From assembly GCA_963786235.1 (NCBI GenBank), contig CAWAYJ010000017.1, forward strand, positions 245,855-309,854: 64,000 nt of DNA, read 5' to 3'. This DNA comes from an uncultured Gemmatimonadales bacterium (lineage in GTDB: Bacteria; Gemmatimonadota; Gemmatimonadetes; Longimicrobiales; RSA9). The translations under genes were made by a program, and so were the position numbers. The notes beneath the pieces are model-generated. The model ran no database searches and had not been told where the DNA came from. It saw nothing but the letters and a program-made list of their open reading frames with translations. Positions 22,053-61,767 of the stretch are shown here, piece by piece (position 1 is the stretch's first letter; each line of letters starts with the position of its first letter).

Positions 22053-22229
22053 TCAGTCACAACAGGGGATTGGCGGATCGCCCATTCCACAGCCGGGCGA
22101 GACGCAGGCGATTTCGCCGTTGTCGAATCCAAACTTCTTCGTGCCCGACTCACCCGCCATCACTGTTGCTGCCGTGATGGCAACCGCGACTACAGCGGCC
22201 ACGATTGATCCTGCGATCCCTCTCCTCAT
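22053..22229 (-). CDS. Small secreted Cys-rich peptide, 58 aa; not in the ORF track
   Basis: My own translation: MRRGIAGSIVAAVVAVAITAATVMAGESGTKKFGFDNGEIACVSPGCGMGDPPIPCCD. A GAGGAGGG SD lies just upstream. It sits 35 nt downstream of the thioredoxin-like gene and shares the C-x-PGC...CCD pattern with 34793..34993. Confidence 0.55.
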   Translation of the reverse strand: MRRGIAGSIVAAVVAVAITAATVMAGESGTKKFGFDNGEIACVSPGCGMGDPPIPCCD

Positions 22230-22264
22230 CCAGCCCTCCTCTCAGGTGATTGTTGCCCGCACGG

Positions 22265-22780
22265 TCAGCGCCCGGTTCTGGCCATCGGGTCCAAGCTCAC
22301 GTCCAGAAGCTGCACCACAGAGTCACGCACTAGAGCAAGCCTCGCTGCATTTCCATCGAGCTGCGTGATCAGGATGGCCTTATCTGCGAGATTTCGACGC
22401 AGCCGCTCCACGCCCGGATCCGATGCAAGCGGCAACTGTACCTTCTCCCGACGAAGGAACAAGCAAACGGCCTGTGTGTCCTCCACGGCTGTAAGCACAA
22501 CGGCGATCTGCCCACCCCGTCGTTTCTCCAGCTCGATCTCTCTCAAGAGACGACCCACGTTCCAGCATTGGTAGCACGTTTCAGCCGTCACAACGATGAT
22601 TTTCCGAGGAAAGTTGGCATTCCCCGCATGGCCGCAACCGTTTCCGGCGAGATCCGCTCGGAGCACGGACCCCAAGGATTCTGCCACAGCACTTGGAAGA
22701 TCATCTTTCGGCTCGGAGTTAGCCACCAGGGCCAGCGCACCGGCCCCGAGGATTGCGGGAACGAAATGCCACCTACTCAC
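22265..22780 (-). CDS. Thioredoxin-fold CxxC protein, exported (paralog of 34215..34709)
   Basis: N-terminal hydrophobic segment WHFVPAILGAGALALVANS. The motif IIVVTAETCYQCWNVG aligns with ILVVTKEQCLGCANVG. The GTG start at 22780 overlaps the propeller stop by 8 nt. Confidence 0.6.
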   Translation of the reverse strand: MSRWHFVPAILGAGALALVANSEPKDDLPSAVAESLGSVLRADLAGNGCGHAGNANFPRKIIVVTAETCYQCWNVGRLLREIELEKRRGGQIAVVLTAVEDTQAVCLFLRREKVQLPLASDPGVERLRRNLADKAILITQLDGNAARLALVRDSVVQLLDVSLDPMARTGR

Positions 22781-23855
22781 GATCCACTGAGCGAAGGCTA
22801 TAGAGCACGAACTGCAGGGTGTTTCCCGTGGGATCCGCGATCGCCACCAGCGTATCGGCAAAAGCACCGATCACCGCTGGCGCGTTCGTCAGGGTATGCC
22901 ACTCTCCCGCGGGGCTTCGTATGGCAAGACTGATTCGATCTCCGTCGTTTCTGCTGCCGCGGACAAACGGCACGGCTACGTGGGATCCCACCTGCAACGG
23001 TGCCAGCGGTCCGTCGAACGCGCGCCGCCACTCCAGAAAGTCCAGAGCGTTCGCGAGGTTGTCGGGTTGGTCTTGGGGAGGTGCGTAGTTCACCAGCGGA
23101 ATCCCAATGCGGGAAGTACTTCCTGTGCCTGGATCGAAGGTCCACGCGGTGTCGCTGACTTCGGGTAGGATCCAGATCGTATCGTTGATGACTCCAATCG
23201 ATTGGCCGACGAAGATGTTCCAGGCCGCTCGTGCAGCTGCGGATTTCACTTCAATCGGCACGAGGCGGTCGAGGATGTTGCCATGACCGTCGAGGTGAGC
23301 GAGAGCGTTTCCACCATCGGTGAAGGACCGGACCGATGCAAACACGCTACCATTCTCGCTTGCAACCAGGCCGAACACACCGCTCAGACCGTCGAGGAGA
23401 ATCGTCTCCTCAACGGTTCCGTCCGTGAGATTCAGCAAGCTCAGTCGGTTCGTCGCGGAACCGCCGACGTACGCGTGCGCCTGGCCCACGAGTACGAGGT
23501 ATTGAGCCGATGGGAACTCGGAGGGGCCATGGCCTCTCCGGCCAATTACGTGCTGCAGTGTCCCGTCTGCCGCGTAAACCTTGACGTTCGACTCTGAGTA
23601 GTCGGCGACAATGAAACGGCCCGAAGGATCCACTTTCAGGTCGGTGATGCGCACAAGCAGGGCCGAGTCCGGTTGTTCGGGCGTTACGGTCCGTGCCAGC
23701 TCGAACATGTCGGCGAATGGCTGAATGAGACCTGTTCTCTGTTGAGGCGGTGCCGGGATCCCTTGGTCGGTGGATTCGGAGCATGCTAAACCGATGGAGA
23801 GCGGCGTCAGAAGCAGGAGGGCACATAGGGCATGGTTGCTCCACTGATTCCTCAT
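22773..23855 (-). CDS. NHL-like 6-bladed beta-propeller lipoprotein (paralog 2)
   Basis: Lipobox LSIGLAC, the motif GRRGHGPSEF, and the C-terminal strand ..LQFVLYSLRS. The start was chosen at internal Met 23855. Confidence 0.75.
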   Translation of the reverse strand: MRNQWSNHALCALLLLTPLSIGLACSESTDQGIPAPPQQRTGLIQPFADMFELARTVTPEQPDSALLVRITDLKVDPSGRFIVADYSESNVKVYAADGTLQHVIGRRGHGPSEFPSAQYLVLVGQAHAYVGGSATNRLSLLNLTDGTVEETILLDGLSGVFGLVASENGSVFASVRSFTDGGNALAHLDGHGNILDRLVPIEVKSAAARAAWNIFVGQSIGVINDTIWILPEVSDTAWTFDPGTGSTSRIGIPLVNYAPPQDQPDNLANALDFLEWRRAFDGPLAPLQVGSHVAVPFVRGSRNDGDRISLAIRSPAGEWHTLTNAPAVIGAFADTLVAIADPTGNTLQFVLYSLRSVDRE

Positions 23856-24173
23856 CTGGCGGAACACCGGTGTGTGGGCAGACGAATCACGTAGTCCGCC
23901 TTCAGGGATAGTATAAGGCACGTTGTCCAACTGGACATTATCTTGAGCCGACTCGAACGTCAAGCACTGCATTTCCGCACATTGTCTGCGGGACTGTGCG
24001 TATTCTTCTGTAGTATTTTGTCGATTCTGCGCATACAGGTTCGCAGGGTCGGTCTATGCCTCAACCGACGCCGGGTCGCGCAGCCTCTGGGCGAAATCGG
24101 TGATCGTGCTGCCATGATGGCCTTTCGGATGTGGTAGCCGTCAAACGACGTCGTTGGATCGGCATCGGCGCTC

Positions 24174-24953
24174 TCACTCAAGTGAGTTCGACCAGACGCG
24201 GAAGTGGTCTGGCGGATGCCGGCGGTCGCAGCAGGGGCACTGAACTGCCAGGAGTGGCGTAGGGGATTCCCCCACGCAGGCTCGCTCCCTTCCCGCTGGC
24301 GCGCTCGAGCGGTTGTCGCAGATTGGCACACTGGAGTTGGCCGCTGACGTGTCGTGGCTGTTTCTGGCACCATCGATCTGTAGATTGGATCGGGTGGCGC
24401 CGTTCACGGGGTCCTGCCTGATGGCTCGGAGAATGCCCGGAACCTCCCGGCGGCTCCTTGCATCGAGTTTGTCCCGGACGATCTTGACGTGATTGCTGGC
24501 GGTATTCAGGGCGATTCCGAGAGCTTGGGCGATCTCGCGGTCGGACCGCCGTTCGTTCAGTAGAAGTGCTACCTGCGCCTGCTGGCGTGTAAGTTGGAAA
24601 CGGCGGCGAAGGTCGCGTTGGTCGGGCACGGAACGGGCCGGCTGGATGACAACGACGTACCTTGCACCGGTGCACGGAGTGATCTCGTGAACCTCCACGT
24701 CGCACACATCACCCCGAACGGTTCGCTGATCCCTGAAGACCCGACGGGCGCCACCCGCTCCTTCGAGGTGATCCAGGAATCCGGCGGGCAGAATCGCCTC
24801 AAGACCCTCATCCACAAGGTCGTCCAGAACATCGGAGGGCGACTCCAAGCGCATCAGCAGCGGTCCCGAGGTTATGGCCCGGACGAATAGATCGCAGTAC
24901 CGGCTGACAATTTGCTCGAGGACGGTTACCTGGAGTTTCGCCACATAACCCAT
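24174..24953 (-). CDS. LuxR/GerE-family HTH transcriptional regulator
   Basis: LTRQQAQVALLLNERRSDREIAQALGIALNTASNHVKIVRDKL is a canonical GerE HTH. The ORF then runs on for a long Cys-containing tail that may be read-through. It is divergent from the SARP gene, with a 22-nt gap between the two starts. Confidence 0.75.
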   Translation of the reverse strand: MGYVAKLQVTVLEQIVSRYCDLFVRAITSGPLLMRLESPSDVLDDLVDEGLEAILPAGFLDHLEGAGGARRVFRDQRTVRGDVCDVEVHEITPCTGARYVVVIQPARSVPDQRDLRRRFQLTRQQAQVALLLNERRSDREIAQALGIALNTASNHVKIVRDKLDARSRREVPGILRAIRQDPVNGATRSNLQIDGARNSHDTSAANSSVPICDNRSSAPAGRERACVGESPTPLLAVQCPCCDRRHPPDHFRVWSNSLE

Positions 24954-24975
24954 TGCTACGAGGCGACATGGAGAG

Positions 24976-27402
24976 ATGGATAACAGCCGGGTAATCCGCC
25001 TCGAGCTCCTCGGCCCGGTCCGCCTGCTTGCCGCTGACGGACGAAGCCTTGATGCCGTCGTGCGGCAGCCGAAGCGCTTGGCGATTCTGACGTATCTGGT
25101 GGTTCACGACGGCTTCGTACGCAGGGACACTCTGCTTGCGCTCGGCTGGCCTGAATCCTCGGATCGGGCGGCGCGCCGTGCTCTGAATCAGACCGTCCAT
25201 TTCCTGCGATCGATGCTGGGACCCGATGCCATCGAACGCCGAGGCTCTGGGGAGGTGGCGGTCTCGCGGCAGTGGGTATCGAGCGACATCGGGGATCTCC
25301 ACCGGTCCGCCCAGGAAGGACGTCTCGGCGACGCGATCGCTCTCTATCGCGGGGACCTCCTGCAGGGTGTGCACGTCACGGATTCCGTCGAGCTCTCGCA
25401 ATGGCTCGATACGGCCCGCGACCGGTTCCGGCGGGAAGCTGTCGAGGCGGCCTGCAGGCACGCGGAGGATCTGACCGGCTCGGGCCGGTTCAAGGCCGCC
25501 GAACAGGCAGCAAGGAAAGCGCTGGACATCGAGCCCACCAGTGAGTTGGCCGTCCAGGTCTTGGTGCGGGCACTCCTGCAAACGGGGGCACGAGCGGACG
25601 CGCTCAAGGCCCTGAGGGAATTCCGCGACCGCCTGGAATCGGAGTACGGGATCGAGCCATCGGCTGAGACCGTGCGCATGGTGGAAGCGGCCAGCGAGAC
25701 AGGACCGCCAGGTGAGGCGATTCCAGAGCCGGAGTCGAATCCGATCGAGAACACCGCAGAGGACGCGCCGAACCCACCCGCGGAGCCGCTGGCGGGTCCA
25801 CCGAAGCAGCGCCCAAGTCGACTGCTCCGGAGGCTGGCAGGTTTCGCGATTCTTCTGATTTCGGCTCTGCTCCTTGGCCGCGCCGCGATCCGGCACGGGA
25901 CCGAGGCTACACCGAGTGCGCGAGCCCACCCCGCGAATCGCGTCGCCGTCTTGTACCTCCAACCTCGCGGTGATCTCGGGGATCTGAACTACCTGCCTGA
26001 TGCACTCACCGAAGCGGTTATCGACCAACTCAGCACGACCGATGGGCTCGAGGTCATTGGCCAGTCTGATGTCCGGTGGTTTCAGAGAGACCCGCAACCA
26101 GCCGCCGCCATCGCGGAGGCTTTGAACGTCGGCACCGTCGTGGTCGGCACGCTGTCGCGGCAGGGCGATGACGTACGAACGAGAGTACAGATCGTAGGAG
26201 CCGACGACGGTGCTGTCCAGAGCGTGATGGATATCACCCGTTCGGCTGTGGCCCCGATGGACCTGGTCGCGTTTTGTGTCGACTCGATCACCGCTGGAAT
26301 CCGAGGAGCGCTCGGGCGTTCGGTCAATATGACACAGTGGCATGCCGGCACGAATGACGAGCGAGTCTGGGAACTCGTGCAACGTGCGGGCGCTTTGCGC
26401 CGCACTGCGGTCTCTCTCGCTACGCATGGGGAGCTTGGCAACGTGCCACGCGTTTATGCGGCCGCGGACTCGCTGCTTTCCGTGGCGTCGTCGGCAGACC
26501 GTCGCTGGAGTGTTCCCGATCTGCTTCGAGCGCAACTCGCAGAGGAATCGGCGATCTACTGCATGGCCGTCCCGGAATGCGGCCCACAAACGAGCCTGGA
26601 ATCGGTCGAGCGAGGCATGAGCTTCGCACGCGAGGCTATCGCCCGGCAGCCGGACCATTCCGAGAGTCATACAGAGCTTGGCACACTCTTCTTTCTGGCG
26701 TCGCAGTTGGTTGATTCCACCGCCGCGACCGTGTATCTCGACTCCGCGAAGGAGGCGTTCCTTGCGGCCATCGCTCAAGCCCCGGGGAATGCGATGGCGT
26801 GGAGCCGGTTGTCGGCTGTTCAGTATTCCCGGGGTGAATTCGCGACTGCATACGCTTCGGCGCGGGAGGCCTATCGAGCCGACGCCTACCTATCGAACCG
26901 CGCGGAGGTCTTGGGACGTTTGTTTCTGACGAGTCTGCACCTCGGAGCGGACGACGATGCACGGTACTGGTGCCGGGAGATCGAAGCGACGTCCGGAGGT
27001 ACTTGGCCGGTGGCCTTCTGCCAACTTTGCCTGCTTGCATTTGTGGACTCGGTGATGCCGGATCCCGACTCGGCTTGGAGTCTCGTGCGTGCGCACGCGC
27101 GCGTAGATCTTTCGGCCAAGGTCATGATGCCGAGGTTGGAGATGCTGGTGGCGGCCGTTCTGGGACGGGTCGGAATGACCGATAGCGCGCGGGTCCTGAT
27201 CCGGAGCGGCCTCCGGGATGCCCGGGGCGATCCGGATTTCGATCTTTTCCGTGCCGGCGCCCTGGTTGCCATCGGTGCCCGGGACTCCGCCGTTACTCTG
27301 CTCGAGCAGTATGTCCATGCAAACCCCGCCCAGCGGTCGGCCGTTCTCCATTGGCGCTGGTTTGAGGCGCTCGGGCGCAGCCCCCTCGAAGATTCCCGCT
27401 AG
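24976..27402 (+). CDS. Membrane-anchored SARP/BTAD-family regulator with periplasmic and TPR regions
   Basis: N-terminal wHTH plus BTAD (IRLELLGPVRLLAADGRSL...ALYRGDLLQG...LESEYGIEPSAET), one TM segment (FAILLISALLLG), then a TolB_N-like segment and a TPR-like C-terminus. 808 aa. Confidence 0.8.
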   Translation: MDNSRVIRLELLGPVRLLAADGRSLDAVVRQPKRLAILTYLVVHDGFVRRDTLLALGWPESSDRAARRALNQTVHFLRSMLGPDAIERRGSGEVAVSRQWVSSDIGDLHRSAQEGRLGDAIALYRGDLLQGVHVTDSVELSQWLDTARDRFRREAVEAACRHAEDLTGSGRFKAAEQAARKALDIEPTSELAVQVLVRALLQTGARADALKALREFRDRLESEYGIEPSAETVRMVEAASETGPPGEAIPEPESNPIENTAEDAPNPPAEPLAGPPKQRPSRLLRRLAGFAILLISALLLGRAAIRHGTEATPSARAHPANRVAVLYLQPRGDLGDLNYLPDALTEAVIDQLSTTDGLEVIGQSDVRWFQRDPQPAAAIAEALNVGTVVVGTLSRQGDDVRTRVQIVGADDGAVQSVMDITRSAVAPMDLVAFCVDSITAGIRGALGRSVNMTQWHAGTNDERVWELVQRAGALRRTAVSLATHGELGNVPRVYAAADSLLSVASSADRRWSVPDLLRAQLAEESAIYCMAVPECGPQTSLESVERGMSFAREAIARQPDHSESHTELGTLFFLASQLVDSTAATVYLDSAKEAFLAAIAQAPGNAMAWSRLSAVQYSRGEFATAYASAREAYRADAYLSNRAEVLGRLFLTSLHLGADDDARYWCREIEATSGGTWPVAFCQLCLLAFVDSVMPDPDSAWSLVRAHARVDLSAKVMMPRLEMLVAAVLGRVGMTDSARVLIRSGLRDARGDPDFDLFRAGALVAIGARDSAVTLLEQYVHANPAQRSAVLHWRWFEALGRSPLEDSR

Positions 27403-27559
27403 AGAGCCCTGCAGAACCGGAGCGCGCGCTTCTCCGGCAGTAAAGCCAAAAAGATAGCCAATTCTTGGTCATGCGCGGTGTCCTGCCCGAGTGCATGGTA
27501 GGAGCGACCGTCTGGAATGAGCCGGGCGGGCTTCACCCGATTCCAACCCGGAGCGGACC

Positions 27560-27715
27560 ATGCGAACTCGTCGTGCGCAGGTGCTCGCGCTGTTTGCCGT
27601 CCTAGCCATCGGCCTCCTTTCGGGCTGCAGGAAGGATATCCTGGAGCCACCGCCGTCGCCCGAGTCGGGTCCGTGCTACTGGATCGGCACTCAGTACATC
27701 TGTATTCCCGGCTGA
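27560..27715 (+). CDS. Small lipoprotein-like ORF, 51 aa; not in the ORF track
   Basis: My own translation: MRTRRAQVLALFAVLAIGLLSGCRKDILEPPPSPESGPCYWIGTQYICIPG. Lipobox LLSGC, GGAG 6 nt upstream, and the stop lies 4 nt before the C1-like gene. A conserved paralog is at 60571..60723. Confidence 0.6.
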   Translation: MRTRRAQVLALFAVLAIGLLSGCRKDILEPPPSPESGPCYWIGTQYICIPG

Positions 27716-27719
27716 AGCA

Positions 27720-28751
27720 ATGATCCGGTTTCAATCGGGCGAATCAAGCCGGCCCATGGACCAGGGTCTTTCTGGGCGGCCGGCCGAGTCTCGGCGCATT
27801 CGCGACTCGTCCCCCAGGGATCCAGCGAAGGCGATACCAGTACGGCGTCTGGCGGCGCGCGGGATGGGCTGGGTACGGGACATTCCGAGCATCCGGGATT
27901 ACGGGCCGTTCCATGAGTACGTGTCCGTCAAGAAGGCGCAGCTGGGACAGAGCGACTCCATTCTCGACATGCTCGCGGAAACCGATGCTCTGGACTCCGA
28001 GCTGGATCTCCCAACTTCCGTTGACCTCCGTCAGTGGTTTCCGCCGGCAGACGACCAAGGCCCTCTGGGATCGAGCGCGGTGCACGCCGCGATCGGGCTC
28101 CTCGCGTATTTCGAGTACCGGGCGTGGGGCCGGCATGTGGATCTATCAAGCCGCTTCCTGTACAAGACCGCGCGGAAGCTCATGCAGGTTCACGGAGATG
28201 CCGGAGCGAGTCCCCGGAGCGTGCTGGACGCTCTCGTTCGGTTTGGGGCGCCACCGGAGCGACATTGGCCTCCCAATGTTGCGGCCTTCGACGAGGAACC
28301 ACCGGCGTTCTGCTACGGATACGCGCAGGACTACCAGGCGCTTTCCTACTACAGACTCGACTCCGGCAGGACGAACGGCGAGGAGCTGCTCGAGCGGATC
28401 AAGCGTCACCTGAACTCAGGCGTCCCGCTTCTTTTCGGCTTCACGGTGTTCCGGTCGATCCAGCAGGACGGCAATGTCCCGTTTCCCAACTCGGACGAGC
28501 AAGTGCTCGGAGGGCAGGTCGTTGTCGCGCTCGGCTATGACGACCGGAAGCTCATACGGAATCCGGCGCCCGTCGGACCAGAGACCCGCGGAGCCATTCT
28601 GATCCGGAGTTCCTGGGGGGAGGAGTGGGGGGAGCACGGCTACGGGTGGCTGCCATATCAATATGTACTTGGCGGGCTTGCCGCTGATTGGTGGTCGCTG
28701 ATTAGGTACGAGTGGATGGAGACGGGGGAGTTCCAGCGGCAAGACCAATGA
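27720..28751 (+). CDS. Papain-like (peptidase C1) homolog with substituted catalytic residues; likely a non-peptidase homolog
   Basis: Family motifs are present: GWVRDIPSIRDY, DLRQWFPPADDQGPLGSS, GYDD, SSWGEEWGEHGYGWLPY. The canonical GSC is GSS (S119) and the canonical GGH is GGQ (Q266). No signal peptide. Confidence 0.8.
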   Translation: MIRFQSGESSRPMDQGLSGRPAESRRIRDSSPRDPAKAIPVRRLAARGMGWVRDIPSIRDYGPFHEYVSVKKAQLGQSDSILDMLAETDALDSELDLPTSVDLRQWFPPADDQGPLGSSAVHAAIGLLAYFEYRAWGRHVDLSSRFLYKTARKLMQVHGDAGASPRSVLDALVRFGAPPERHWPPNVAAFDEEPPAFCYGYAQDYQALSYYRLDSGRTNGEELLERIKRHLNSGVPLLFGFTVFRSIQQDGNVPFPNSDEQVLGGQVVVALGYDDRKLIRNPAPVGPETRGAILIRSSWGEEWGEHGYGWLPYQYVLGGLAADWWSLIRYEWMETGEFQRQDQ

Positions 28752-28861
28752 GAGGACTCAAGACGTACGCCAGTCCGCCGAAAGGACGGCAGGCCATTGG
28801 AGCACGCCCGATCGAGGGGCCCAGGCCGGTATGTTGTTCAACTGCATCGAGGTGGTGCATC

Positions 28862-29695
28862 ATGCGAGTTGCAGTCTATTGTCCACGGGGACTCAGCGAG
28901 TCGATCAAGCCAGCACTCGGATTCCCTGCAGAGTTCCACGATTCGTGGTCAGCGTTTGAGGAAGCGGTTCGCAGCGCAGATTGTGGCGTGTCCGTCATCG
29001 AGTGGTTGAGGGAATCGCCCGGAGCACCGGAATTGAAGGGGCTTCGCAACTCCCACCCGCAGACCGGCTTGGTCTTGGTGACAAGATTCGACCGTGAGAA
29101 CGGAGGCCTTCTCCCAGACACGGCCGATAGGTTCGTGTGGCTCGCAGAGGTCGAAGAGCACTTGAATCCTGCGGTAACGGAAGCGGGGCGCGGGCTGTGT
29201 GCGCGCTTGGAACGATACATCCGGATCCAGCTACCTCGTTCTGGAGCCGGGCGCCTCGGCAACATCCGCGACGCACTGCTGGTGCTTATCGATGTCGACC
29301 CGCCGGCAAGGACCGTGAAGGAGTGGTGCGCTCTCCGAGCCGTGTCATGTTCTGTTTCGACGCTACAAAAGGGGTTCGGAAACACATTCCAGTCCGGTAT
29401 CACACCCTTGTTCATCCTGGAAGTCGTGCGCTTGTACAAAGCGCTCGACGAATTCCCGAATGCCAGCTCGTGGAGGAAGCTTGCTTTGGAGGCAGGACCG
29501 AAGTGGTATGAAGACGGAAAACTCAGTCCCAAAACGCTGTCCAACACGGCTGCCCGGCTACTTGGGCAGGTCCGCGTACCCGCAGGGACCGGGAGACACA
29601 ATGGCGTATCGATGTGGGGCCCGCCGTTGGCCGAGAGACCCAGCTCCATAGACAGGCGCTCGTTGTTACACGCGCTCGTGGGGTTGCTTTGCTAG
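28862..29695 (+). CDS. Receiver-like plus AraC-like HTH regulator (paralog of 13043 and 61864)
   Basis: MRVAVYCPRGLSESIKP...VSVIEWL...LVLVTR... followed by ARTVKEWCALRAVSCSVSTLQKGFGNTFQSGITPLFILEVVRLYKAL. Confidence 0.6.
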   Translation: MRVAVYCPRGLSESIKPALGFPAEFHDSWSAFEEAVRSADCGVSVIEWLRESPGAPELKGLRNSHPQTGLVLVTRFDRENGGLLPDTADRFVWLAEVEEHLNPAVTEAGRGLCARLERYIRIQLPRSGAGRLGNIRDALLVLIDVDPPARTVKEWCALRAVSCSVSTLQKGFGNTFQSGITPLFILEVVRLYKALDEFPNASSWRKLALEAGPKWYEDGKLSPKTLSNTAARLLGQVRVPAGTGRHNGVSMWGPPLAERPSSIDRRSLLHALVGLLC

Positions 29696-30006
29696 CCGGT
29701 GCCGCGCGTATACTCGGGAACTGGTGTTCGCACATCCGCTTCGCGATACCGCCGAGTCGGCATTTGGTCCCGATTCATCCGCTTTTGGGCATAGTGCCAT
29801 GGTTCAGGTGAAGGTAATTTGGGAATGCACCTTTGGGGCCCCCGAGGAAAGAGGAAAGATCGAACTGGAGTGGCATGGATCGGGCTGAGCGACTGCCGAA
29901 GTCGTGTGTTGTAGAATACACTCCAGATCTTCCTCGGAAGTTGAGCATAGACTTGGCCACACGAGGTGCGGCCGAAGATGATCCCCTGACCAATGGAGGA
30001 TACGCC

Positions 30007-30513
30007 GTGTCTACCCGAACCGTCATCCGGTTTTCGCGCTCGCCATGGCATGTTGGTGTGGCGGTGTTGCTTGGACTGTTCGCCGGTGCTCAGGGGCTCC
30101 AAGCGCAGTCCCACCCGCAGAGCGTGACGGAGTGTTGGGACTGCCGAGTAGAGTACTACCAGCCGCTCGACTGTTGGATTGACTCTTGCTACTGGACGTC
30201 GGGCGCCGGATGGAGTAACTGTAGCCAGTTCGGAGATTGCCAGTCTGAAGAAACCTGCCAAGGCAATGGACACGGTTGCGAAGGCGGTTTGGCGATCCTG
30301 TTGGATGGCCGTTCTGCAGTCGGGCTCTCAGCCACCCAATTGCATGCGATTCTGGCGGAGGCCGGTCCCGACGAGATGGCGAGGATGGCATGGTCCACCG
30401 AGGGCGACACCGAGTATCTGAAACTATCGTGCAACGGCACGGTGATCCACGCCGAATATTCACGCGCAGAGACCGCGCGCCTTCGGCTTCGCACGCATCG
30501 GCTAGACATCTAA
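30007..30513 (+). CDS. Secreted Cys/His-rich protein, family member B
   Basis: GTG start with GGAGGA 6 nt upstream. Signal ...FAGAQGLQAQ. Twelve Cys, including CWDC. The C-terminal domain has YLKLSCNGTVIHAEYS. The stop overlaps the next start (TAATG). Confidence 0.6.
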   Translation: MSTRTVIRFSRSPWHVGVAVLLGLFAGAQGLQAQSHPQSVTECWDCRVEYYQPLDCWIDSCYWTSGAGWSNCSQFGDCQSEETCQGNGHGCEGGLAILLDGRSAVGLSATQLHAILAEAGPDEMARMAWSTEGDTEYLKLSCNGTVIHAEYSRAETARLRLRTHRLDI

Positions 30514-31745
30514 TGCCGGCGCTAGCTGTGTTCCGGGCCGCCGGGGCGGTGGCGGACCGAGCTGCGGCCGCGGCCGGAATCCTCGGCTTCGTCCTTGCGC
30601 CGGTGGGAGCCGCGGCGCAGTCGTTCCTGAGGGCTCTGCCGGCCCGAACGGCTCACTTGGAGATATCGCTGGGTGCCTTCGACGACCCGGTGCTCGCGTT
30701 TTCGAGGGTCTCCGGTGTCACAATGGACCGGGACGGGCGGATTTACGTGCTTCAGTCCACCGAACGCGAGGTTACGGTCCTGAATCCCAATGGAACCCTA
30801 TACCAGCGCATTGGCCGCAGGGGCCAGGGGCCCGGTGAATTCGAGGGACCGAATGCACTCGGCTGGCGGGGCGACACCTTGTGGGTAACGGACATCGCGC
30901 AGCAGCGGGTGTCCTGGTTCTACCAGGGACAACACTTGCGCACGAACCGGTTTGTGCCGGTTCGTCTGGAGCGGAGTGCAATGCCCGGCGCCCAAATCGC
31001 TACGCAATTGCCGATGGCGGACGGCTCCTACTTCACAATTATGTCGTGGAGGTTCGAGCGGCCGGCCGGCTCACCAGAGAATTACTTGCCAATCATTCGT
31101 ACCACGGCTGATGCAAGAACGGAAACGGTCGTAGCCCGGTTGCAGGAGTCCTTCCCGTTCCGGCTCATCATTGAAATACCGAACGGAAGATCCTACGGGT
31201 CACCTCTGTTCTCCGATTTTCCTCTACAAACCACGAGCACCTCCGGCGAGCGCTATGCGATCGTAGATCGGCCATTCGCCAAAGGGCCGCAGGTTCGCAT
31301 CCGTTTGACAGTACTCGAGGCATCAGGTGACACGGCGTACTCGCGCGTCTACATGGTCGACACTGAACCGCTTACCGACCAGCAGTGGAATGCGAGGCTC
31401 CAAGAAGCGATCGCGCGTGTGAACCGGCCCGATCGGCCCGCTCCGGGCTGGGGACTCCGCGAACTGGAAAAGGCCTCACGTAGACCAAGCCACTGGCCGG
31501 CGGCCACCGGGGTGATTCTGGGGTCGGATTTGTCGGTGTGGATCGGACTGGCCGACCTGCCGTGGCGGGCGGACCGGGACTGGGCAGTTCTCGACAGTCA
31601 AGGCACCCCGCTCTTCAAGGTTAGTCTTCCTCGCGGCTTTTACCCCTCCACGGCGTCGTCGGCCAACATGGTCTGCGGAGTGTGGAACGACGAGCTAAAT
31701 GTACCCCACGTACAACTGTACCGGTTGGGCGAGGTCGGGGGCTGA
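30513..31745 (+). CDS. NHL-like 6-bladed beta-propeller protein (paralog 3)
   Basis: Signal ...APVGAAAQ, the motif GRRGQGPGEFEGP, and the C-terminal ..PHVQLYRLGE. It is translationally coupled on both sides. Confidence 0.75.
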   Translation: MPALAVFRAAGAVADRAAAAAGILGFVLAPVGAAAQSFLRALPARTAHLEISLGAFDDPVLAFSRVSGVTMDRDGRIYVLQSTEREVTVLNPNGTLYQRIGRRGQGPGEFEGPNALGWRGDTLWVTDIAQQRVSWFYQGQHLRTNRFVPVRLERSAMPGAQIATQLPMADGSYFTIMSWRFERPAGSPENYLPIIRTTADARTETVVARLQESFPFRLIIEIPNGRSYGSPLFSDFPLQTTSTSGERYAIVDRPFAKGPQVRIRLTVLEASGDTAYSRVYMVDTEPLTDQQWNARLQEAIARVNRPDRPAPGWGLRELEKASRRPSHWPAATGVILGSDLSVWIGLADLPWRADRDWAVLDSQGTPLFKVSLPRGFYPSTASSANMVCGVWNDELNVPHVQLYRLGEVGG

Positions 31746-32638
31746 TGAGCGGCGCAGCCCGACGAGAACTATGCCGGTCGGTCACGTGGCTTATGCTGTT
31801 TCCGGGTCCGGCCATGGCACAAGCGAAGCCAGCATTGACGCTGACAGAGGCTTGGTCCGTCCGCTGGCCCGAAAGGAGCAGGATATCGAGAGTCGTTCCA
31901 GGCGTGCAGATGAGAATCGCTATCCAGAGTGGCTCTTGGATCTACATGCTGAAGGACGCGCTTCCTCCCGTCCCGATCGGAAATTTCGAGATACTAGATG
32001 TCGTCGGATTGGCCGCCAGCGAGGCCGGCCTGGAACTCGTGGACCGCCGTACCCACCGCATCGTGCGAACGGACACGGCGGGGCGGGTCACATCCTGGAC
32101 GCCGGTCCCCACCGCCAGCGACGATGAGATCGCGTCGGGCGCATCGACTCCATGTGGTTGGGCGATCGGGTTGAGAGCGAACGGTGGCACCGGCAACCGT
32201 CTCCTGTTCCTGGACTGGGCGGAGCCAAAGAACCACCCGCTCGAACTTCCCTTTGCTCCGCGCCGACTAACTGCGACGGGAAAGTTGTTGGCGATAAGCG
32301 AGGACACGGCCCCCTATCGCGTGGCGCTCGTGAACTGCGACTCAACCCAGGTGATTACAATCGATACTTCCGAGGTCCAGGCGGATCTGGACATGCAGAC
32401 ATGGCGCCCGCTCCCGGCGTTCGTCGTCAACACGCAAGTTCTGCAGACATGGGTGGACGCGGGAAGCGACCGCCGGCGATTCGCATCCTACGGGCTGGAC
32501 GGGACGGTGCTCAGGTGGGTCGATCTCAGCGCACCCCTGACGCTAGTCGCCGCTTTCCCCTCGGGTTTCGTGATCGGTCTCCGCGGCATCGGAGATCTCG
32601 AGGTCGTAGGGTTCACGTTGAGTGCACAGGGGCGATAA
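31745..32638 (+). CDS. Secreted hypothetical protein, probably a divergent or degenerate member of the propeller family (paralog 4)
   Basis: The start overlaps the previous stop (TGATG). Signal ...GPAMAQA. It lacks the GPGEF motif but ends with the family-like strand DLEVVGFTLSAQGR. Confidence 0.5.
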   Translation: MSGAARRELCRSVTWLMLFPGPAMAQAKPALTLTEAWSVRWPERSRISRVVPGVQMRIAIQSGSWIYMLKDALPPVPIGNFEILDVVGLAASEAGLELVDRRTHRIVRTDTAGRVTSWTPVPTASDDEIASGASTPCGWAIGLRANGGTGNRLLFLDWAEPKNHPLELPFAPRRLTATGKLLAISEDTAPYRVALVNCDSTQVITIDTSEVQADLDMQTWRPLPAFVVNTQVLQTWVDAGSDRRRFASYGLDGTVLRWVDLSAPLTLVAAFPSGFVIGLRGIGDLEVVGFTLSAQGR

Positions 32639-33043
32639 TAGCGAGAGGGGCCAAACTAACAGGTGTGGTTGCCGGGTTTGGATCAGTTGGCGGTTGCATA
32701 CTCAAACGCACCGCAAAGGCCTCTGAAGATTATCAGATGTACCGCGTGAGCAATCGACGAATGGCTGGGAACAGCGGAAGAGTCTTGGCGTCGACGATTC
32801 AGTCGGCTTTGTCGGGCAGGGTAGCCGTAAGTACTCTTCTCGCGATAGCCGGCGGCCAGCCGGCGCGGCGAAAGTCGGAACGCGTGCCATGTTGGCTTAT
32901 GGCCGTGCTATCATCCCAGCCGAAGACCCTGCGAAGCAACTTGACGCTGAACAGACAGGCCGTTGAACGTTCATTCATTCTTGAACTGGCTATTTCTGCC
33001 CTGTGCAATGCGCAAAGTGATCGCGCGATGAAAGGGACTGCCA

Positions 33044-34192
33044 ATGCAAGCCGCTACGCACCAGCGCCGGTCAAAGTGCCGAGGCGTTCTCACCTTCCGG
33101 TTCGGTCCGATCACTTGCGCTTTGCTGGTTGTCGGAGCGATTGGCTGTGCAGAACCACCGGCGGCGTCGCAGGTCGCATCGCGGACAGCAGACGTGCAAT
33201 CCGCGTCCGAGGACTCGCTTCCGGCCGTCGAAATCGAAGCGCTTATTGCATTTGACTCAGCATACATGGCAATCGACTCGTTCACGCTCAAGCAAGACGA
33301 CGAGAACGTGGTTGCAAGAGTTGCCAATGTGGTTATCGATGAACACCGACATGTCGTCTTCGTAGTTGACGCCTCCGAGCGAAACGTGAAGGAATTCGAC
33401 TTCGGCGGCAGGTTGATTAAGGTGTACGGAAGAGCCGGTGCGGGCCCTGGCGAATTCCGGACCCCAGAGGACGGAGCCATCGACCCGCTTGGGCGGCTTG
33501 TGGTGTTCGACGGACTAGCGAATCGTGTAACGGTGTTCCTGCCAGACAGCGCGCCGCGAGTTGTGCAGGTACATGGCATGACAAAGGTACGCGACTTCAC
33601 GATCAGTGCGTCAGGGACATATCTCTTTGTGGCGGCACTGGCGAGCAATGAAGACGTCCTCTTTGAGACGAGTGAGGATGGCACGATCCTTCAGGAAGCC
33701 CTGCCGTTGGCGCACGTCGTCCCGGAAGGTGAAACCGACGGCCCACTGTGGACCTTTCCGCGTACGTTCTTTCTCAGTGCGCGCCAGGACACGGCATTAG
33801 TAATCTGCAGTCTATTGCCTCGCATTTGGAGAGTATCCCTCGCCGATCATTCAGTTGTCCATCAGGATGTCGTGTTTCCGGGGTATTTACCCCCACGGAG
33901 CCCTCCGCGAGATAAGAGCACCAGCACAGCGGATGTCGTACAGTGGTTCTATTCCCGACACCTGACCGCATTCCTAACAACGACGAGGAAAGAGGTCTTT
34001 TGGCCATTCATGCATGGAGAAGTCATGCAGAACAATCCGATGGTTGTTGTGCATCAAGGACCCGACGGGAAATGGGAAGCCCTCGACGGGGCACCAATCA
34101 TATTGAAGCCATTTGCTGACGGGCGTCTGCTCGTCTACAGGGACCCGACGGCGGATGCGCCGCGCTTTGTCATTTATCGGAGGCGACCATGA
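33044..34192 (+). CDS. NHL-like 6-bladed beta-propeller lipoprotein (paralog 5)
   Basis: Lipobox VVGAIGC, the motif GRAGAGPGEFRTP, and the C-terminal ..PRFVIYRRRP. Confidence 0.75.
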   Translation: MQAATHQRRSKCRGVLTFRFGPITCALLVVGAIGCAEPPAASQVASRTADVQSASEDSLPAVEIEALIAFDSAYMAIDSFTLKQDDENVVARVANVVIDEHRHVVFVVDASERNVKEFDFGGRLIKVYGRAGAGPGEFRTPEDGAIDPLGRLVVFDGLANRVTVFLPDSAPRVVQVHGMTKVRDFTISASGTYLFVAALASNEDVLFETSEDGTILQEALPLAHVVPEGETDGPLWTFPRTFFLSARQDTALVICSLLPRIWRVSLADHSVVHQDVVFPGYLPPRSPPRDKSTSTADVVQWFYSRHLTAFLTTTRKEVFWPFMHGEVMQNNPMVVVHQGPDGKWEALDGAPIILKPFADGRLLVYRDPTADAPRFVIYRRRP

Positions 34193-34214
34193 GGGGGCCG
34201 TTGTCTTGGTTGTG

Positions 34215-34993: not shown

Positions 34994-35029
34994 CAAGTCT
35001 ATGAGCCATGTAGTACGCGTCGTGCGAAA

Positions 35030-57391: not shown

Positions 57392-57925
57392 ATCTCCGGA
57401 ATATCCCGGCGGCTCCGTGCATTGAGCTTGTCCCGGACGATCTTGACGTGATTGCTGGCCGTGTTCAGGGCGATGCAGAGGGCCTGGGCAATCTCGCGGT
57501 CGGACCGCCGTTCGTTCAGTAGAAGTGCTACCTGCGCCTGCTGGCGTGTAAGCTGGAAACGGCGGCGAAGGTCGCGTTGGTCGGGCGCGGAACGAGCCGG
57601 TTGGACGACGACGACGTACTTGGCACCGGTGCATGGGGAGACCTCATGAACTTCCACGTCGCACAGTTCTCCCCGGACAGTTTTCTGACCCGCGAAAACC
57701 CGTCGGAGCCCTTCTGCTTCATCGGGGGACGGTTGACCATCCGGGAATCCATCGGACAGAATCGCCTCAAGACCCTCATCGAAAAGGGCCTCCAGTACAC
57801 TGGGGGGCGACTCCAGAAGCATTGGCAGCACTCGCGGGGCATCAGTCTACGGGATGATCGCACCACCGGCTGACAATGTCGTGAAACGCGGTCACACGGA
57901 GTTTCGCCACATAACCTGTTGTCAT
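57392..57925 (-). pseudogene. LuxR-family regulator, copy 2; disrupted near the N-terminus and truncated at the 3' junction
   Basis: The N-terminal MTTGYVAKLRVTAFHDIVSRWCDHPVD runs into a stop (track ORF 57842..58069). The rest, including the GerE HTH, lies in another frame (57214..57831), whose end reads through the junction. Confidence 0.65.
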
Positions 57926-57941
57926 GGGGCCACATGGAGAG

Positions 57942-60380
57942 ATGGATAACGGCTGGGTGATCCGCCTCGAACTGCTTGGGCCGGTCCGCCTGCTTGCCGC
58001 CGACGGACGCAGCCTTGATGCCGTCGTGCGCCAGTCGAAGCGTCTGGCGATTCTGACGTACCTGGTCATCCATGACGGGTTCGTGCGCCGGGACCCTCTA
58101 CTGGCTCTCGGTTGGCCGGAGTCTTCAGACCGGTCGGCGCGGCGTGCGCTGAATCAGACGATCCACTTCCTCCGGTCGGAACTTGGGCAGCACATCATCT
58201 CACGGCGGGGTGCGGGCGAAGTGCGCGTGTCTCCTGACCATGTGTCGAGCGACGTGGTCGACTTCCGGCGGGCCATTCAGGAGGGACGATTCGGCGACGC
58301 GATCGATCTCTATCGAGGCGAACTGCTGAGTGGGGTGCATGTGGCCGATTCCGTCGAGCTATCCCAATGGCTTGACGGCGCACGTGACGAGTTTCGGCGT
58401 GAATCTGTCGAGGCGGCCTGCAGGCATGCGGAGAGATTGGCGGCTTCGGGCAGATTCCAGGCAGCAGAACAGACAGCGAGAAAAGCCCTCAAGATCGAAC
58501 CGACCAGCGAGGTGGCCGTCCAGGTCTTGGCACGGACGCTCCTGCAAGCAGGGGCGCGACCCGCAACTCTCAAGGTTCTGAACGAATTCCGGGCTCGCCT
58601 GGAATCCGAGTACGGGATCGAGCCATCCGCTGAGACCTTGCGTTTGGCGGAAGCGGCGGCCAGCGAGACAGGATCGCCGATCGAGGCGATCCCAGAGCCG
58701 GTCTCGGATCCGATCGAGAACACTACTAAGGACGCGCCGAACCCAGCTGCGGAGCCGTCGCCACCGGCGCGGCCAAGTCGGCCACTGTGGGGGCTGGCAG
58801 GTCTCGCGATCCTGTTGGCTGCGGTTCTGCTGCTTGGCCGTGTCGCAATCCGGCACGGGACCGAGGCTACCCCGAGTGCCGCAGCCTACCCCGCGAACCG
58901 GGTGGCCGTGATGTATCTCCAACCTCGCGGTGATCTCGGGGACCTGGACTACCTGCCTGATGCGCTCACCGAAGCGGTTATCGACCAACTCAGCATGACA
59001 GATGGGCTCGAGGTCATTGGCCAGTCAGATGTCCGGTGGCTACAGAGCGACCCGCAACCGGCCGCCGCCATTGCGGAGGCTTTGAACGTCGGCACCGTCG
59101 TGGTCGGCACGGTGTCGCGGCAGGGCGATAACGTACGAACGAGAGTCCAGGTCGTAGAAGCCGACGACGGTGCTGTCCGAAGTGTGATGGACATTGCCCG
59201 TTCCGCCGTTCCGCCGATGGACCTGGTCGCGTTCTGCGTCGACTCTATCACCGCTGGTATCCGAGAGGCACTCGGGCGTTCGGTCGAACTGACACACTGG
59301 CATGCCGGCACGAATGACGAGCGGGTCTGGGAACTCGTGCAACGTGCAAGCGCGTTGCGTCGCTCTGCGGTCTCTCTCGCTACGCGTGGGGAGCTCGGCA
59401 ACGTGCCACGCGTTTACGCGGCTGCGGACTCACTTCTTTCCGTGGCGTCGTCGACAGACCGTCGCTGGAGCGTTCCCGATCTGTTTCGAGCTCAACTCGC
59501 AGGGGAATCGGCGGTCTACTGCATGGCCCTCCCGCGAATGCAGGCTCACAAACGGGCTTGAAGTCGGTCGAGCGAGGTATCGGTTTCGCACGCGAGGCCA
59601 TTGCCCGAGCAGCCGGACCATTCCGAGAGTCATACAGAACTTGGCACGCTCTACTTCCTGGGGTCGCAGTTGGTTGATTCCACCCGCACGACGGTGTATC
59701 GCGACTCCGCCAAGGAAGCCTTCCATGCAGCAATCGCCCAAGTCCCCGCGGGAATGCCATGGCCTGGAGCCGTTTGTCCGCGGTTCAGTACTCCAAGGGT
59801 GAATTCGCCGAGAGCAAACGCATTCGGCGCGGGAGGCCTATCGAGCCGACTCCTACCTTTCGAACCGCGCAGAGGTTCTGGGACGCCTGTTCCTGACGAG
59901 TCTGCACTTGGGGGCGGACGACGATGCACGGTACTGGTGCCGGGAGATCGAAGCGACGTCAGCCGGCACTTGGCCAGTGGCTTTCTGCGACCTTTGCCTG
60001 ATTGCATTCGTGGACTCGGTGATGCCGGATCCGGACTCGGCCAGGAATCTCGTACGCGTGCACGCGCGTGCGGATCCTACCCCAAGGCGATGATGCCGAG
60101 GCTGGAGATGCTGGTGGCGGCCGCTCTGGGCCGTGCAGGCATGGTGGACAGTGCCCAAGCCTTGATTCGAACCACGCTCCAAGAAGGCCGCGGCGATCCA
60201 CAAATGGCCCTTTTCCATGCGGGAGCCTTGCTGGCCATCGGTTCCCGGGATTCGGCCAGAGCTGTGCTCGAACGGTATGTTCACGAGAATCCTGCGGAAC
60301 GGTCTGCCGTGACTCGCTGGCGTTGGTTTCAACCGCTCGGGTTAATCCAAGCACTCCCGGAGGACAGCTACAGCAAGTAG
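57942..60380 (+). pseudogene. SARP/BTAD-TPR regulator, copy 2, with several frameshifts in the C-terminal third
   Basis: Colinear with 24976..27402 up to ..AVYCMALP, where it hits a stop at 59561. Homologous segments continue in 59601..60380 and 59908..60093 in different frames. Confidence 0.75.
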
Positions 60381-60570
60381 AACTTAGCGGCGAACCCACG
60401 CCGGTGGCAGACGGGGCTTTGAACGCCAACGTGGATCTCTCCGGTTTCCTGAGTCTCCCAAGAAATATAGCCAATTATTGGTCATGCGCCATCGCAGCCC
60501 GGATTACATGGTGGAGAGACCGGTCTGAATAGCCGGATCGTGGTTTCTCAACTCGGACGCGGAGTCAACC

Positions 60571-60723
60571 ATGCGGGTTCGGCGTGGGCATGTGCTAGTG
60601 GTGATCGTGATTGCGGCATTGGGTCTCGTTGCTGGGTGCCGGGATGGCATCACGGAGCCGCCCCCATCTGCGGGCGAGGTCTGCTTCTGGATCGAAGGCC
60701 AGTACATCTGTATCCCGGGCTGA
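60571..60723 (+). CDS. Small lipoprotein-like ORF, 50 aa; not in the ORF track
   Basis: My own translation: MRVRRGHVLVVIVIAALGLVAGCRDGITEPPPSAGEVCFWIEGQYICIPG. Lipobox LVAGC and GGAG 6 nt upstream. It is a paralog of 27560..27715. Confidence 0.6.
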   Translation: MRVRRGHVLVVIVIAALGLVAGCRDGITEPPPSAGEVCFWIEGQYICIPG

Positions 60724-60744: not shown

Positions 60745-61767
60745 ATGATTCACTTCCAGGGAGATTCTGACCGGCTCGCGGCCCCCGTGCAGCTGCCGGC
60801 TCATCGGGCCGAGCAACGTGATTCCACGGAGGTTTCCGGCAGACCGGGCGCGCAGCTAACTCGCGTGAACCCGAGAGGCATGGGCTGGATTCGTGACATT
60901 CCGAGCATCCGGGACCACGGTCCGTTCCACGAGCACGTGTCCATGAAGAAGATGCAATTGGGGCAGAATGAGTCAATTCGCGAGATGCTCGAGGAGACGG
61001 ATGCCCTGGATTCCGGGGTCGACCTCCCATCATCAGTCGACCTGCGCGAATGGTTCCCGCCCGTCGATGACCAGGGGTCGCTGGGATCGAGCGCCGTGCA
61101 CGCGGTGATCGGGCTCCTGGCGTACTTCGAGTACCGGGCGTGGGGCCGGCACGTGGATCTATCGAGCCGGTTCTTGTACAAGACGGCGCGCAAGCTCATG
61201 CAGCTCGAGGGAGACACCGGAGCGAATCCGCGGAGCGTTTTCGATGCCCTGGTGCGGTTTGGGGCACCACTGGAGCGATACTGGCCGCACGACGTGCAGG
61301 GTTTCGATGAGGAACCACCCCCGTTCTGCTACGGGTACGCGCAGGACTACCAGGCGCTTTCCTACTACAGACTCGACTCCGGTGGGATACACGGCGAGGA
61401 GTTGCTCGGTCGGATCAAGCGGCACCTCAACTCAGGCCTGCCCTCAATGTGCGGGTTCACCGTGTTTCGATCGATCCAGCAGAACGGCGATATTCCGTTC
61501 CCGACCGCTGACGAAACCGTCTTGGGTGGGCAGGCGGTCGTGGTCGTCGGGTTTGACGATCGTAGGGTGATCGCGAATCCTGACCCTGTCGGGCCGAAGA
61601 CCCGCGGAGCATTGCTGGTACGGAATTCCTGGGGCGAGGAATGGGGCAAAGCTGGGTACGGGTGGCTCCCCTATCGATATGTCGTGGATGGACTAACCGC
61701 CGACTGGTGGTCGCTGATCCGGTACGAGTGGATCGAGACCGGGGAGTTCCAGCGCCCTGAACGATAG
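60745..61767 (+). CDS. Papain-like (peptidase C1) homolog with substituted catalytic Cys and His, copy 2
   Basis: DDQGSLGSSAVHA (Ser in place of the catalytic Cys), LGGQAVVVVGFDD (Gln in place of His), and VRNSWGEEWGKAGYGWLPY (Asn retained). Confidence 0.8.
   Translation: MIHFQGDSDRLAAPVQLPAHRAEQRDSTEVSGRPGAQLTRVNPRGMGWIRDIPSIRDHGPFHEHVSMKKMQLGQNESIREMLEETDALDSGVDLPSSVDLREWFPPVDDQGSLGSSAVHAVIGLLAYFEYRAWGRHVDLSSRFLYKTARKLMQLEGDTGANPRSVFDALVRFGAPLERYWPHDVQGFDEEPPPFCYGYAQDYQALSYYRLDSGGIHGEELLGRIKRHLNSGLPSMCGFTVFRSIQQNGDIPFPTADETVLGGQAVVVVGFDDRRVIANPDPVGPKTRGALLVRNSWGEEWGKAGYGWLPYRYVVDGLTADWWSLIRYEWIETGEFQRPER

Follow-up and report, generated by a model that had tools for sequence, protein, structure and literature searches.

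Papain-family homologues with Ser and Gln at the catalytic Cys and His positions, maintained beside a small lipoprotein gene in a Gemmatimonadales genome

The closest described protein to the two genes considered here is xylellain of Xylella fastidiosa, a short bacterial member of the C1A (papain) family of cysteine peptidases. The genes lie in a 64,000-nucleotide stretch of DNA from an uncultured Gemmatimonadales bacterium (assembly GCA_963786235.1, contig CAWAYJ010000017.1, positions 245,855 to 309,854 of the forward strand), which is referred to as the window and numbered from its first letter. Both share with xylellain an N-terminal G-W-x-x-D-x-P-x-x-R-D segment, a GYGWLPY...W...W tail, a length of about 290 amino acids (aa) and the lack of a signal peptide. 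Xylellain, however, has Cys, His and Asn at its catalytic positions, whereas the window copies have Ser, Gln and either Ser or Asn, together with two inserts. The xylellain type is named in a 2023 survey of the C1 family, which notes its wide horizontal spread and lists "loss of active site" among the evolutionary forces at work in the family; the available passages of the survey hold no description of the group to which the window copies belong (PMC10380794). No account of a bacterial papain pseudo-protease, or of C1 homologues in the polysaccharide loci of Planctomycetes, turned up in a literature search.

In eukaryotes the papain family includes established pseudo-proteases and Ser variants. 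Plasmodium SERA5, the inactive cysteine protease paralogues of the scabies mite and silicatein lack the Cys nucleophile, often with Ser in its place, and persist as functional proteins that do not carry out normal proteolysis. These proteins differ from the window copies in being eukaryotic, secreted, members of other C1A lineages and without a known small lipoprotein partner, and SERA5 and silicatein keep the His that is Gln in the window. In bacteria, "non-peptidase homologues" are flagged in databases only automatically. The catalytically dead LytM (M23) factors EnvC and NlpD have binding and regulatory roles in envelope processes, but their likeness to the present proteins concerns a possible mode of action only, as fold and family are unrelated and no activated enzyme is evident here. 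Set beside these systems, three features of the proteins described below look new, namely the recurrent Ser/Gln state, a large mis-annotated clade that shows it and the pairing with a lipoprotein.

Both window genes are xylellain-type (short bacterial C1A) members of the papain family by profile and by fold. Together with five close relatives, P0001-P0005, which are 71-100% identical, lie on other contigs and all come from one family of metagenome assemblies, they form a group of seven sequences, the window clade. The open reading frames (ORFs) and the codons at the catalytic positions, as placed by alignment, are the following.

27720..28751, plus strand: copy 1, predicted dead xylellain-type C1A homologue; ORF of 343 aa, conserved domain from the Met of the MGW motif at 27864
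28074..28076, plus strand: Ser119 of copy 1 (AGC), at the position of the nucleophile Cys (papain Cys25)
28515..28517, plus strand: Gln266 of copy 1 (CAG), at the position of the catalytic His (papain His159)
28608..28610, plus strand: Ser297 of copy 1 (AGT), at the position of Asn175
60745..61767, plus strand: copy 2, predicted dead C1A homologue; ORF of 340 aa, core from 60880
61090-61092, plus strand: Ser116 of copy 2 (AGC)
61531-61533, plus strand: Gln263 of copy 2 (CAG)
61624-61626, plus strand: Asn294 of copy 2 (AAT), the retained Asn175 position

The two proteins are 71% identical overall and 78% identical in the core, counted from the conserved Met onward. The initial annotation, made from the letters of the DNA alone, had described both ORFs as full length, with intact fold motifs and without a signal peptide, and the results agree with it, with one qualification on the start codon. 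The Pfam model Peptidase_C1 (PF00112) matches at 26-26.7 bits (26 for copy 1) against a gathering score of 20.7 and exceeds that score in all six clade members scanned (the two copies and four relatives). The marks of the xylellain type are kept in the forms GxGW..D.P..RD and GYGWLPY..W..W..GEF, and the highest 15-residue Kyte-Doolittle mean over the first 105 aa is only 0.48. Two inserts relative to the xylellain type, residues 77-92 and 281-288, are private to the window clade. Among solved structures the best relative of copy 1 is xylellain (PDB 3OIS, E 3.6e-20). An AlphaFold2 (AF2) model of copy 1 built from 117 sequences has a mean confidence (pLDDT) of 91.3, with values above 93 over residues 50 to 340, and a Foldseek search with this model again returns 3OIS at the top (E 5e-21, TM-score 0.76 on the target), followed by Lpg2622 and pro-cathepsins, with E values from 5e-21 to 1e-10 over these matches. 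The predicted structure of copy 1 is thus the two-lobed papain fold. An NCBIfam scan gave no match for the C1 homologue, for the small ORF upstream of it or for the 277-aa protein encoded downstream.

Alignment of copy 1 with 3OIS places GS-S119 on GS-Cys (DDQGPLGS-S against YDQGRIGS-C), GG-Q266 on GG-His (LGG-Q-VVVALGYDD against LEGG-H-AVLCVGYDD) and R-S297-SWG on R-Asn-SWG, and alignments with 120 and then 270 homologues yield identical catalytic columns. Cys and His are both present at the first two positions in 114 of the 120 homologues of the first alignment. The replacement of Cys by Ser and of His by Gln in both copies, and the presence of Ser at the Asn175 position of copy 1 with Asn kept in copy 2, had been read from the sequence in the initial annotation and are confirmed here. 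All five relatives likewise carry the substitutions: the nucleophile position is Ser (AGC) in six of the seven clade sequences and Asn (AAC) in P0002, the His159 position is Gln (CAG) in all seven, and the Asn175 position is Ser in copy 1 and P0001 but Asn in copy 2 and P0002-P0005. Each replacement codon is a single nucleotide away from a Cys, His or Asn codon (TGC, CAC/CAT, AAT). No alternative Cys/His dyad appears in the alignment, and the whole long ORF of copy 1 contains a single Cys, C198. The oxyanion-hole Gln (Q113, equivalent to Gln19) and the Trp equivalent to Trp177 (W299) are invariant across all 122 aligned sequences. As aligned, the window copies lack the two defining features of an active C1 peptidase, the nucleophile Cys and the general base His, and both genes are predicted to encode catalytically inert proteins.

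The initial annotation had further suggested a maintained pseudo-enzyme rather than a decaying gene, and the pattern of substitution supports this. In the core, the ratio of nonsynonymous to synonymous substitution (dN/dS, Nei-Gojobori) is 0.10-0.16 in all ten pairs compared, with dS of 0.60-1.07. Copy 1 is nearest to the gene of locus L002 and copy 2 to those of L003 and L004; because each copy is closer to a copy on another contig than to its counterpart in the window, the two cassettes are old paralogues and did not arise by recent duplication. In 48 active relatives, 73 columns reach 95% conservation or more, and 62 of these are retained in the window clade. The 11 changed columns (C119, T120, A121, E129, R144, L145, M169, Y185, F239, H266 and A267) take in the dyad and its direct neighbours at 120, 121 and 267. 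Taken together, the data show strong purifying selection that preserves the papain fold together with the Gln of the oxyanion hole, the equivalent of Trp177, the N-terminal segment and the C-terminal tail, so that a bacterial lineage keeps a papain-family dead protease under strong selection. That the genes are decaying pseudogenes, or that the substitutions are artefacts of sequencing or assembly, is barely credible in view of ORFs intact in seven sequences on independent contigs, the low dN/dS at high dS, the same codons in five loci and a confidently predicted fold. Some damage to the assembly or to the surrounding island does occur, as the regulator gene next to copy 2 contains a stop and frame shifts, and the origin of all relatives in one family of assemblies also speaks for such a view. 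A third dead C1 copy is found in L003 as a C-terminal fragment of 144 aa, of the GGQ type, at 13046-13480, 4 kb 3′ of the full gene.

A profile of the dyad-less sequences retrieved more than 100 further protein clusters, 109 of them new. Ser and Gln are combined in 70 of the 109, the third residue being Asn or Ser; the others show Ser/Met, Cys/Gln, Ser/His, Ala/His, Gly/Gln, Thr/Met and similar pairs, and 11 are canonical. These sequences define a large clade of at least 108 protein clusters which, where named, belong to Planctomycetota (Gemmataceae, Pirellulales) and bear no annotation beyond "C1 family peptidase" or "C1A family cysteine protease". The large clade resembles the window clade in its Ser and Gln, in Asn or Ser at the third position, in the retained Gln19 and Trp equivalents, in the loss of E129 and in the change of M169 to Leu. 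It nevertheless appears to have a separate origin. In a neighbour-joining tree of 165 sequences, computed with Kimura distances from a profile alignment that left out the three catalytic columns, the window clade is recovered in 200 of 200 bootstraps and the large clade, with 108 leaves of which two nested ones are canonical, in 184, while the two are joined in only 2. In 199 of 200 bootstraps, the window clade is placed with ten or more active sequences, in a group from which the whole large clade is excluded. Its identity to active relatives, which account for every match of at least 50%, is 44-54%, as against 35-46% to the large clade. An earlier neighbour-joining tree (BLOSUM62, 270 sequences), computed without removal of the catalytic columns, had joined the window clade and other Ser/Gln sequences into one clade of 16; it was rejected after the 109 further clade members had been added, the catalytic columns removed and bootstrapping applied. 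A third Ser/Gln case, P0168 (498 aa), has a weak, sub-threshold match to an nSTAND1 NTPase N-terminal to its C1 domain, and one-step intermediates are scattered among the active sequences (Ser/His three times, Cys/Gln, Cys/Leu and Gly/His). With P0168 as the third case, the Ser/Gln state arose at least three times, and the dead state of the window clade is, on these trees, independent of that of the large clade. An identical state has thus been reached several times within one subfamily, in one case by a very large lineage that usually heads polysaccharide export operons.

The recurrence of Ser and Gln bears on whether the altered site has acquired a new chemistry. In the pooled dyad-less sequences, most of which belong to the large clade, Ser is conserved at 84% and Gln at 87%. 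Their columns have entropies of 0.96 and 0.83 bits, compared with 1.7-3.0 for the neighbouring columns 117, 118 and 120, which implies that the two positions still matter, for structure or for binding. A Ser/Gln site that works with the invariant Gln113 and Trp299 in weak Ser-based hydrolysis or transfer, or in non-peptide chemistry, would account for this conservation, for the emergence of the same pair at least three times and for the invariance of the oxyanion-hole residues. Silicatein and the Ser-type SERA proteins would be parallels for such Ser-based hydrolysis or transfer. A new catalytic role is nonetheless improbable because the nucleophile position tolerates Asn in the window clade (P0002) and Ala, Gly or Thr in a minority of large-clade clusters, with Cys kept in a few. 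The base position of the large clade also varies, with Met, Leu, His, Tyr, Ala, Thr and Lys as alternatives to Gln. Moreover, no general base stands in place of His, and neighbours that are invariant in active enzymes (GSCTA, E129, M169) have changed, E129 and M169 in both clades. The repeated appearance of Ser and Gln is explicable without new chemistry, since both are single-nucleotide replacements that preserve shape.

The gene context of the large clade was obtained from seven look-ups. Five of the seven genes (L006, L008/L009, L090/L091, L092 and L093) lie directly 5′, on the same strand, of genes for a Wzz/GNVR chain-length protein and a Bac_transf priming transferase; a ParA-like tyrosine kinase gene lies between the two in four of the five loci, and a polysaccharide deacetylase gene follows downstream in four, where the fifth has Wzy. 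The C1 gene occupies 6001 to about 6880 in L006, L008, L009, L090, L092 and L093, and 1098-1979 in L091. Of the other two genes, that of L007 lies among glycosyltransferase and epimerase genes, and P0299 (Cys/Gln) is found elsewhere. No small lipoprotein gene was found upstream of the large-clade genes, and no Wzz/GNVR, tyrosine kinase or Bac_transf gene lies around either window copy or in L002-L005. As the origins are separate, the polysaccharide context of the large clade is not transferred to the window genes. In L006, L007, L008 and L090 the C1 gene is preceded by a gene for a protein of about 220-290 aa without a Pfam match, and the preceding proteins of L006, L007 and L008 have a common motif, ...VKEFK.PA.NQET.L.AFEEEGW.... 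Elsewhere in the family, xylellain-type C1 domains with Cys and His are joined to a phage lysozyme domain or a peptidoglycan-binding domain (P0136/P0147, P0123/P0125).

A constant companion of the window-clade genes is a short ORF directly upstream, which is preceded in turn by a conserved DNA element.

27454..27476, plus strand: conserved 23-nt element ATAGCCAATTCTTGGTCATGCGC, about 84 nt 5′ of the small ORF; invariant block in four lineages
27560..27715, plus strand: small lipoprotein gene, copy 1, 51 aa; MRTRR, hydrophobic region, LLSG|C, Pro-rich linker and C-x8-C-x-P-G loop (CYWIGTQYICIPG)
60467..60489, plus strand: second copy of the 23-nt element, about 82 nt 5′ of the copy-2 small ORF
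60571..60723, plus strand: small lipoprotein gene, copy 2, 50 aa; LVAG|C ... CFWIEGQYICIPG

That a conserved lipoprotein ORF of about 50 aa precedes each copy had been noted at the outset, and it extends to the relatives: a gene of 47-51 aa lies directly upstream of the C1 gene in all five related loci, with four distinct sequences among them (CYWIGTQYICIPG, CFWIEGQYICIPG, CYWIGDQYICIPG and CTMINGVLVCAP). Their common layout consists of a charged n-region, a hydrophobic core (Kyte-Doolittle mean of the h-region 2.57), a lipobox (LLSGC, LVAGC, LLAGC or VATGC), a short Pro-rich linker and a C-terminal C-x8-C-x-P, and the residues G22, C23, C39, C48 and P50 are invariant. By these features, present in all four sequences, the small ORF is a bacterial lipoprotein gene, with processing predicted. 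Among the closer pairs its dN/dS is 0.28-0.31. In three of the four lineages the ATG is preceded, at about 6 nt, by a GGAG-like motif, and in L003 by GGGGAA. A profile of the small lipoprotein searched against 5.8 billion proteins returned only its own four clusters. The 23-nt element has two matches in the window, where none is expected by chance; its consensus, ATAGCCAATT(C/A)TTGGTCATGCGC followed by CATGGT about 18 nt further on, is kept in four lineages, and it is a likely candidate for the promoter or operator of the small-ORF/C1 pair.

The junction between the two genes bears on where translation of the C1 homologue starts. Codons 1-48 of the long ORF are not conserved (dN/dS 0.6-2.1, AF2 pLDDT 51-67), and gene callers start P0001 and P0005 at the MGW Met, which corresponds to 27864, or a few codons before it. 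On these grounds the codons had been taken as non-coding, a view softened by the open frame and by the junction itself. Between its start and MGW the long-ORF frame is free of stops in five of five loci, whereas the other two frames have a mean of 1.7 stops over the spacer in these loci; the chance of such an open frame in three independent lineages is roughly 0.006, a Poisson estimate from the stop counts. The long ORF of copy 1 starts 4 nt beyond the stop of the small ORF, and that of copy 2 starts 21 nt beyond it; start and stop overlap in L002 (GTGA) and in L003 and L004 (ATGA). Since this frame alone has been kept open, which is unlikely by chance, the extension is probably translated and coupled to the small ORF, as a disordered tail. 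A fusion of the small ORF with the C1 ORF by frameshift or read-through is unlikely, as the frame relation varies between lineages; in copy 2, three in-frame stops also weigh against read-through.

A comparable arrangement of genes is seen among the active relatives. A search of species-representative genomes with the motifs of the window clade itself returned nothing, and a wider profile returned active relatives only, with Cys/His/Asn in all 81 active-type loci. None of the 81 has a credible small lipoprotein ORF upstream. In 11 of them, however, the gene directly upstream on the same strand encodes a chagasin-family (I42) inhibitor (77.8 bits in one example), including the following.

L060, 4473-4919, same strand as the protease gene: I42 inhibitor gene upstream of an active protease
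L046, 4325-4822, same strand as the protease gene: I42 inhibitor gene upstream of an active protease
L058, 779-1282, same strand as the protease gene: I42 inhibitor gene upstream of an active protease

Eight other loci are arranged likewise. Several of these I42 proteins have a signal peptide or a lipobox (LLASGC, LSLGSC, FSQGC), and the adjoining proteases have no signal peptide, so that the geometry of an exported upstream partner and a protease without a signal resembles that of the small lipoprotein and the dead C1 homologue. The pairs differ in that I42 inhibitors are about 110-165 aa long, as opposed to the 47-51 aa of a small ORF without an I42 match in Pfam, and in that a dead C1 protein leaves nothing to inhibit. 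The small ORF or the spacer as a remnant of an I42 inhibitor was rejected, as a profile built from the 11 neighbouring I42 proteins detected nothing in the forward frames of the five loci or in a six-frame scan of the window.

The window genes probably encode a non-catalytic papain-fold protein that binds rather than cleaves, possibly in partnership with the co-encoded small lipoprotein. Ser and Gln have replaced the thiolate-imidazolium dyad by the changes most conservative in shape, each one nucleotide step away; the protein would no longer cleave peptides and would act as a binding module with a substrate cleft, locked in an uncleaved form that resembles a zymogen. The Asn at the nucleophile position of P0002 argues against a catalytic role for that residue. 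The small lipoprotein appears to be the likeliest ligand because of its strict co-occurrence with the C1 gene, the tight gene junction, the common upstream element and the parallel to the inhibitor-protease pairs; its gene occupies the place that the chagasin-type inhibitor gene takes in some active relatives, a positional analogy that suggests a binding partner. The pair lies within a regulator-rich cassette, probably carried on a genomic island, and the cassette also encodes exported Cys-rich and beta-propeller proteins. Such a pairing with a 50-aa lipoprotein amounts to a concrete binding hypothesis, and the recurrent Ser/Gln state to a natural experiment on a papain cleft without catalysis.

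Several points weigh against this interpretation. Inactivity is deduced from the residues at the catalytic positions, and the trees are neighbour-joining trees on profile alignments rather than maximum-likelihood trees. The high conservation of Ser and Gln themselves would fit binding or some other chemistry. Export is expected of the small lipoprotein, yet the C1 homologue lacks a signal peptide; this mismatch of compartments is not decisive, because the I42 pairs of active relatives show it too. Between lineages the lipoprotein loop differs strongly (CFWIEGQYIC against CTMINGVLVC), although the C1 proteins that go with it are close to each other (dN 0.063), which does not look like tight co-evolution. 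Finally, without an I42 trace in the small ORF or the spacer, the analogy with inhibitors is one of position only.

Two other functions can be considered for a papain fold that does not cleave. The homologue may regulate an active paralogue encoded at another place in the genome, or act as its decoy, by binding the substrate, the inhibitor or the enzyme, in the manner of cFLIP with caspase-8 or of dead LytM factors with amidases. Such a role follows a general pattern among pseudo-proteases and would suit both the nesting of the clade among active xylellain-type enzymes and the abundance of regulator genes in the cassette. It is given little probability here, as neither the 64-kb window nor the related loci contain an active C1 gene and Gln is again found in the additional fragment of L003. 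The second possibility, speculative and doubtful though somewhat less so, builds on the binding function preferred here: the dead protease and the disulfide-loop lipoprotein may form a receptor-ligand pair derived from a protease-inhibitor module, co-translated through coupling of stop and start and signalling to the adjacent BTAD, LuxR and helix-turn-helix (HTH) regulators, under whose control the island's exported Cys-rich and beta-propeller proteins would stand. If so, a protease-inhibitor pair would have been turned into a signalling or recognition module, and the recurrent Ser and Gln would mark a cleft that holds a peptide without cutting it. All of these Ser/Gln proteins are currently labelled "C1 family peptidase" or "cysteine protease", names that probably misstate their function.

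Each window copy forms part of a duplicated cassette (24437-28738 and 57396-61754, 80-82% identical in DNA) with the order divergent LuxR/GerE regulator, BTAD/TPR regulator, small lipoprotein, dead C1 homologue and 277-aa gene. The genes around the small ORF and the C1 gene are as follows.

24174..24953, minus strand: LuxR/GerE-type HTH regulator of cassette 1, divergent (NCBIfam NarL-like HTH matches)
24976..27402, plus strand: BTAD/SARP-type regulator of 808 aa with TPR repeats and a mid-protein hydrophobic segment (Pfam BTAD, 65.6 bits)
28862..29695, plus strand: conserved downstream gene for a 277-aa protein, no family match; copy-2 counterpart at 61864-62652
57214-57831, minus strand: LuxR/GerE regulator of cassette 2 (Pfam GerE)
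57924..60380, plus strand: BTAD regulator copy 2, interrupted by an in-frame stop at 59559-59561 and, at about 59.75-60.1 kb, by a stretch that is out of frame

The same order is found in L003, including the GerE gene, and the BTAD regulator is placed likewise in L001. The disrupted BTAD/TPR regulator of cassette 2 is either a pseudogene or the product of an indel error in the assembly; the small ORF and the C1 gene beside it are intact. The 277-aa protein is predicted to have an N-terminal beta-alpha-beta unit followed by a helical part, and an AF2 model from two sequences is poor (pLDDT 46). It shows no homology to the conserved upstream protein of the Planctomycete loci, and neither of the two matches Pfam. 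Four copies or fragments of its gene family occur in the window, including 13094-13834 (minus strand) and 51831-52301, with identities of 42-59%; the family has no match in Pfam or NCBIfam. Cassette 1 continues with a gene for a secreted Cys-rich protein of 212 aa and then with genes for DUF5128/NHL-type beta-propeller proteins. The 212-aa protein (29875-30513) has a signal-peptide-like segment and a Cys-rich stretch (ECWDCRVEYYQPLDCWIDSCYWTSGAGWSNCSQFGDCQSEETCQGNGHGC) with a CYW motif like that of the small lipoprotein, and L003 has a gene for 169 aa at the corresponding position.

The cassette regions at 22000-36000 and 50000-64000 have a G+C content of 0.59-0.64, compared with 0.65-0.72 in the flanks, and the second of these stretches begins beside a gene (49147-50661, minus strand) that matches the zinc-ribbon domain of large serine recombinases. 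The low G+C content and the recombinase-like gene suggest that the cassettes are carried on integrated mobile islands. The surroundings in L002-L005 include DsbA-family genes, insertion sequence (IS) elements and a Prim-Pol/AAA_25 gene pair. None of eight cassette proteins matches the anti-phage defence models of PADLOC, an Rfam scan gave no match and a tRNA search found no gene. Beside cassette 1, at 20511-21484 (converted from the gene calls of L001), lies a HicB/nucleotidyltransferase and HEPN pair of the toxin-antitoxin type. The window also contains internal repeats of 88-97% identity, 9214-11180 with 13897-16320 and 39261-39989 with 56650-57377, the second pair overlapping the small ORFs 56685-57131 and 57125-57451 just 5′ of cassette 2.

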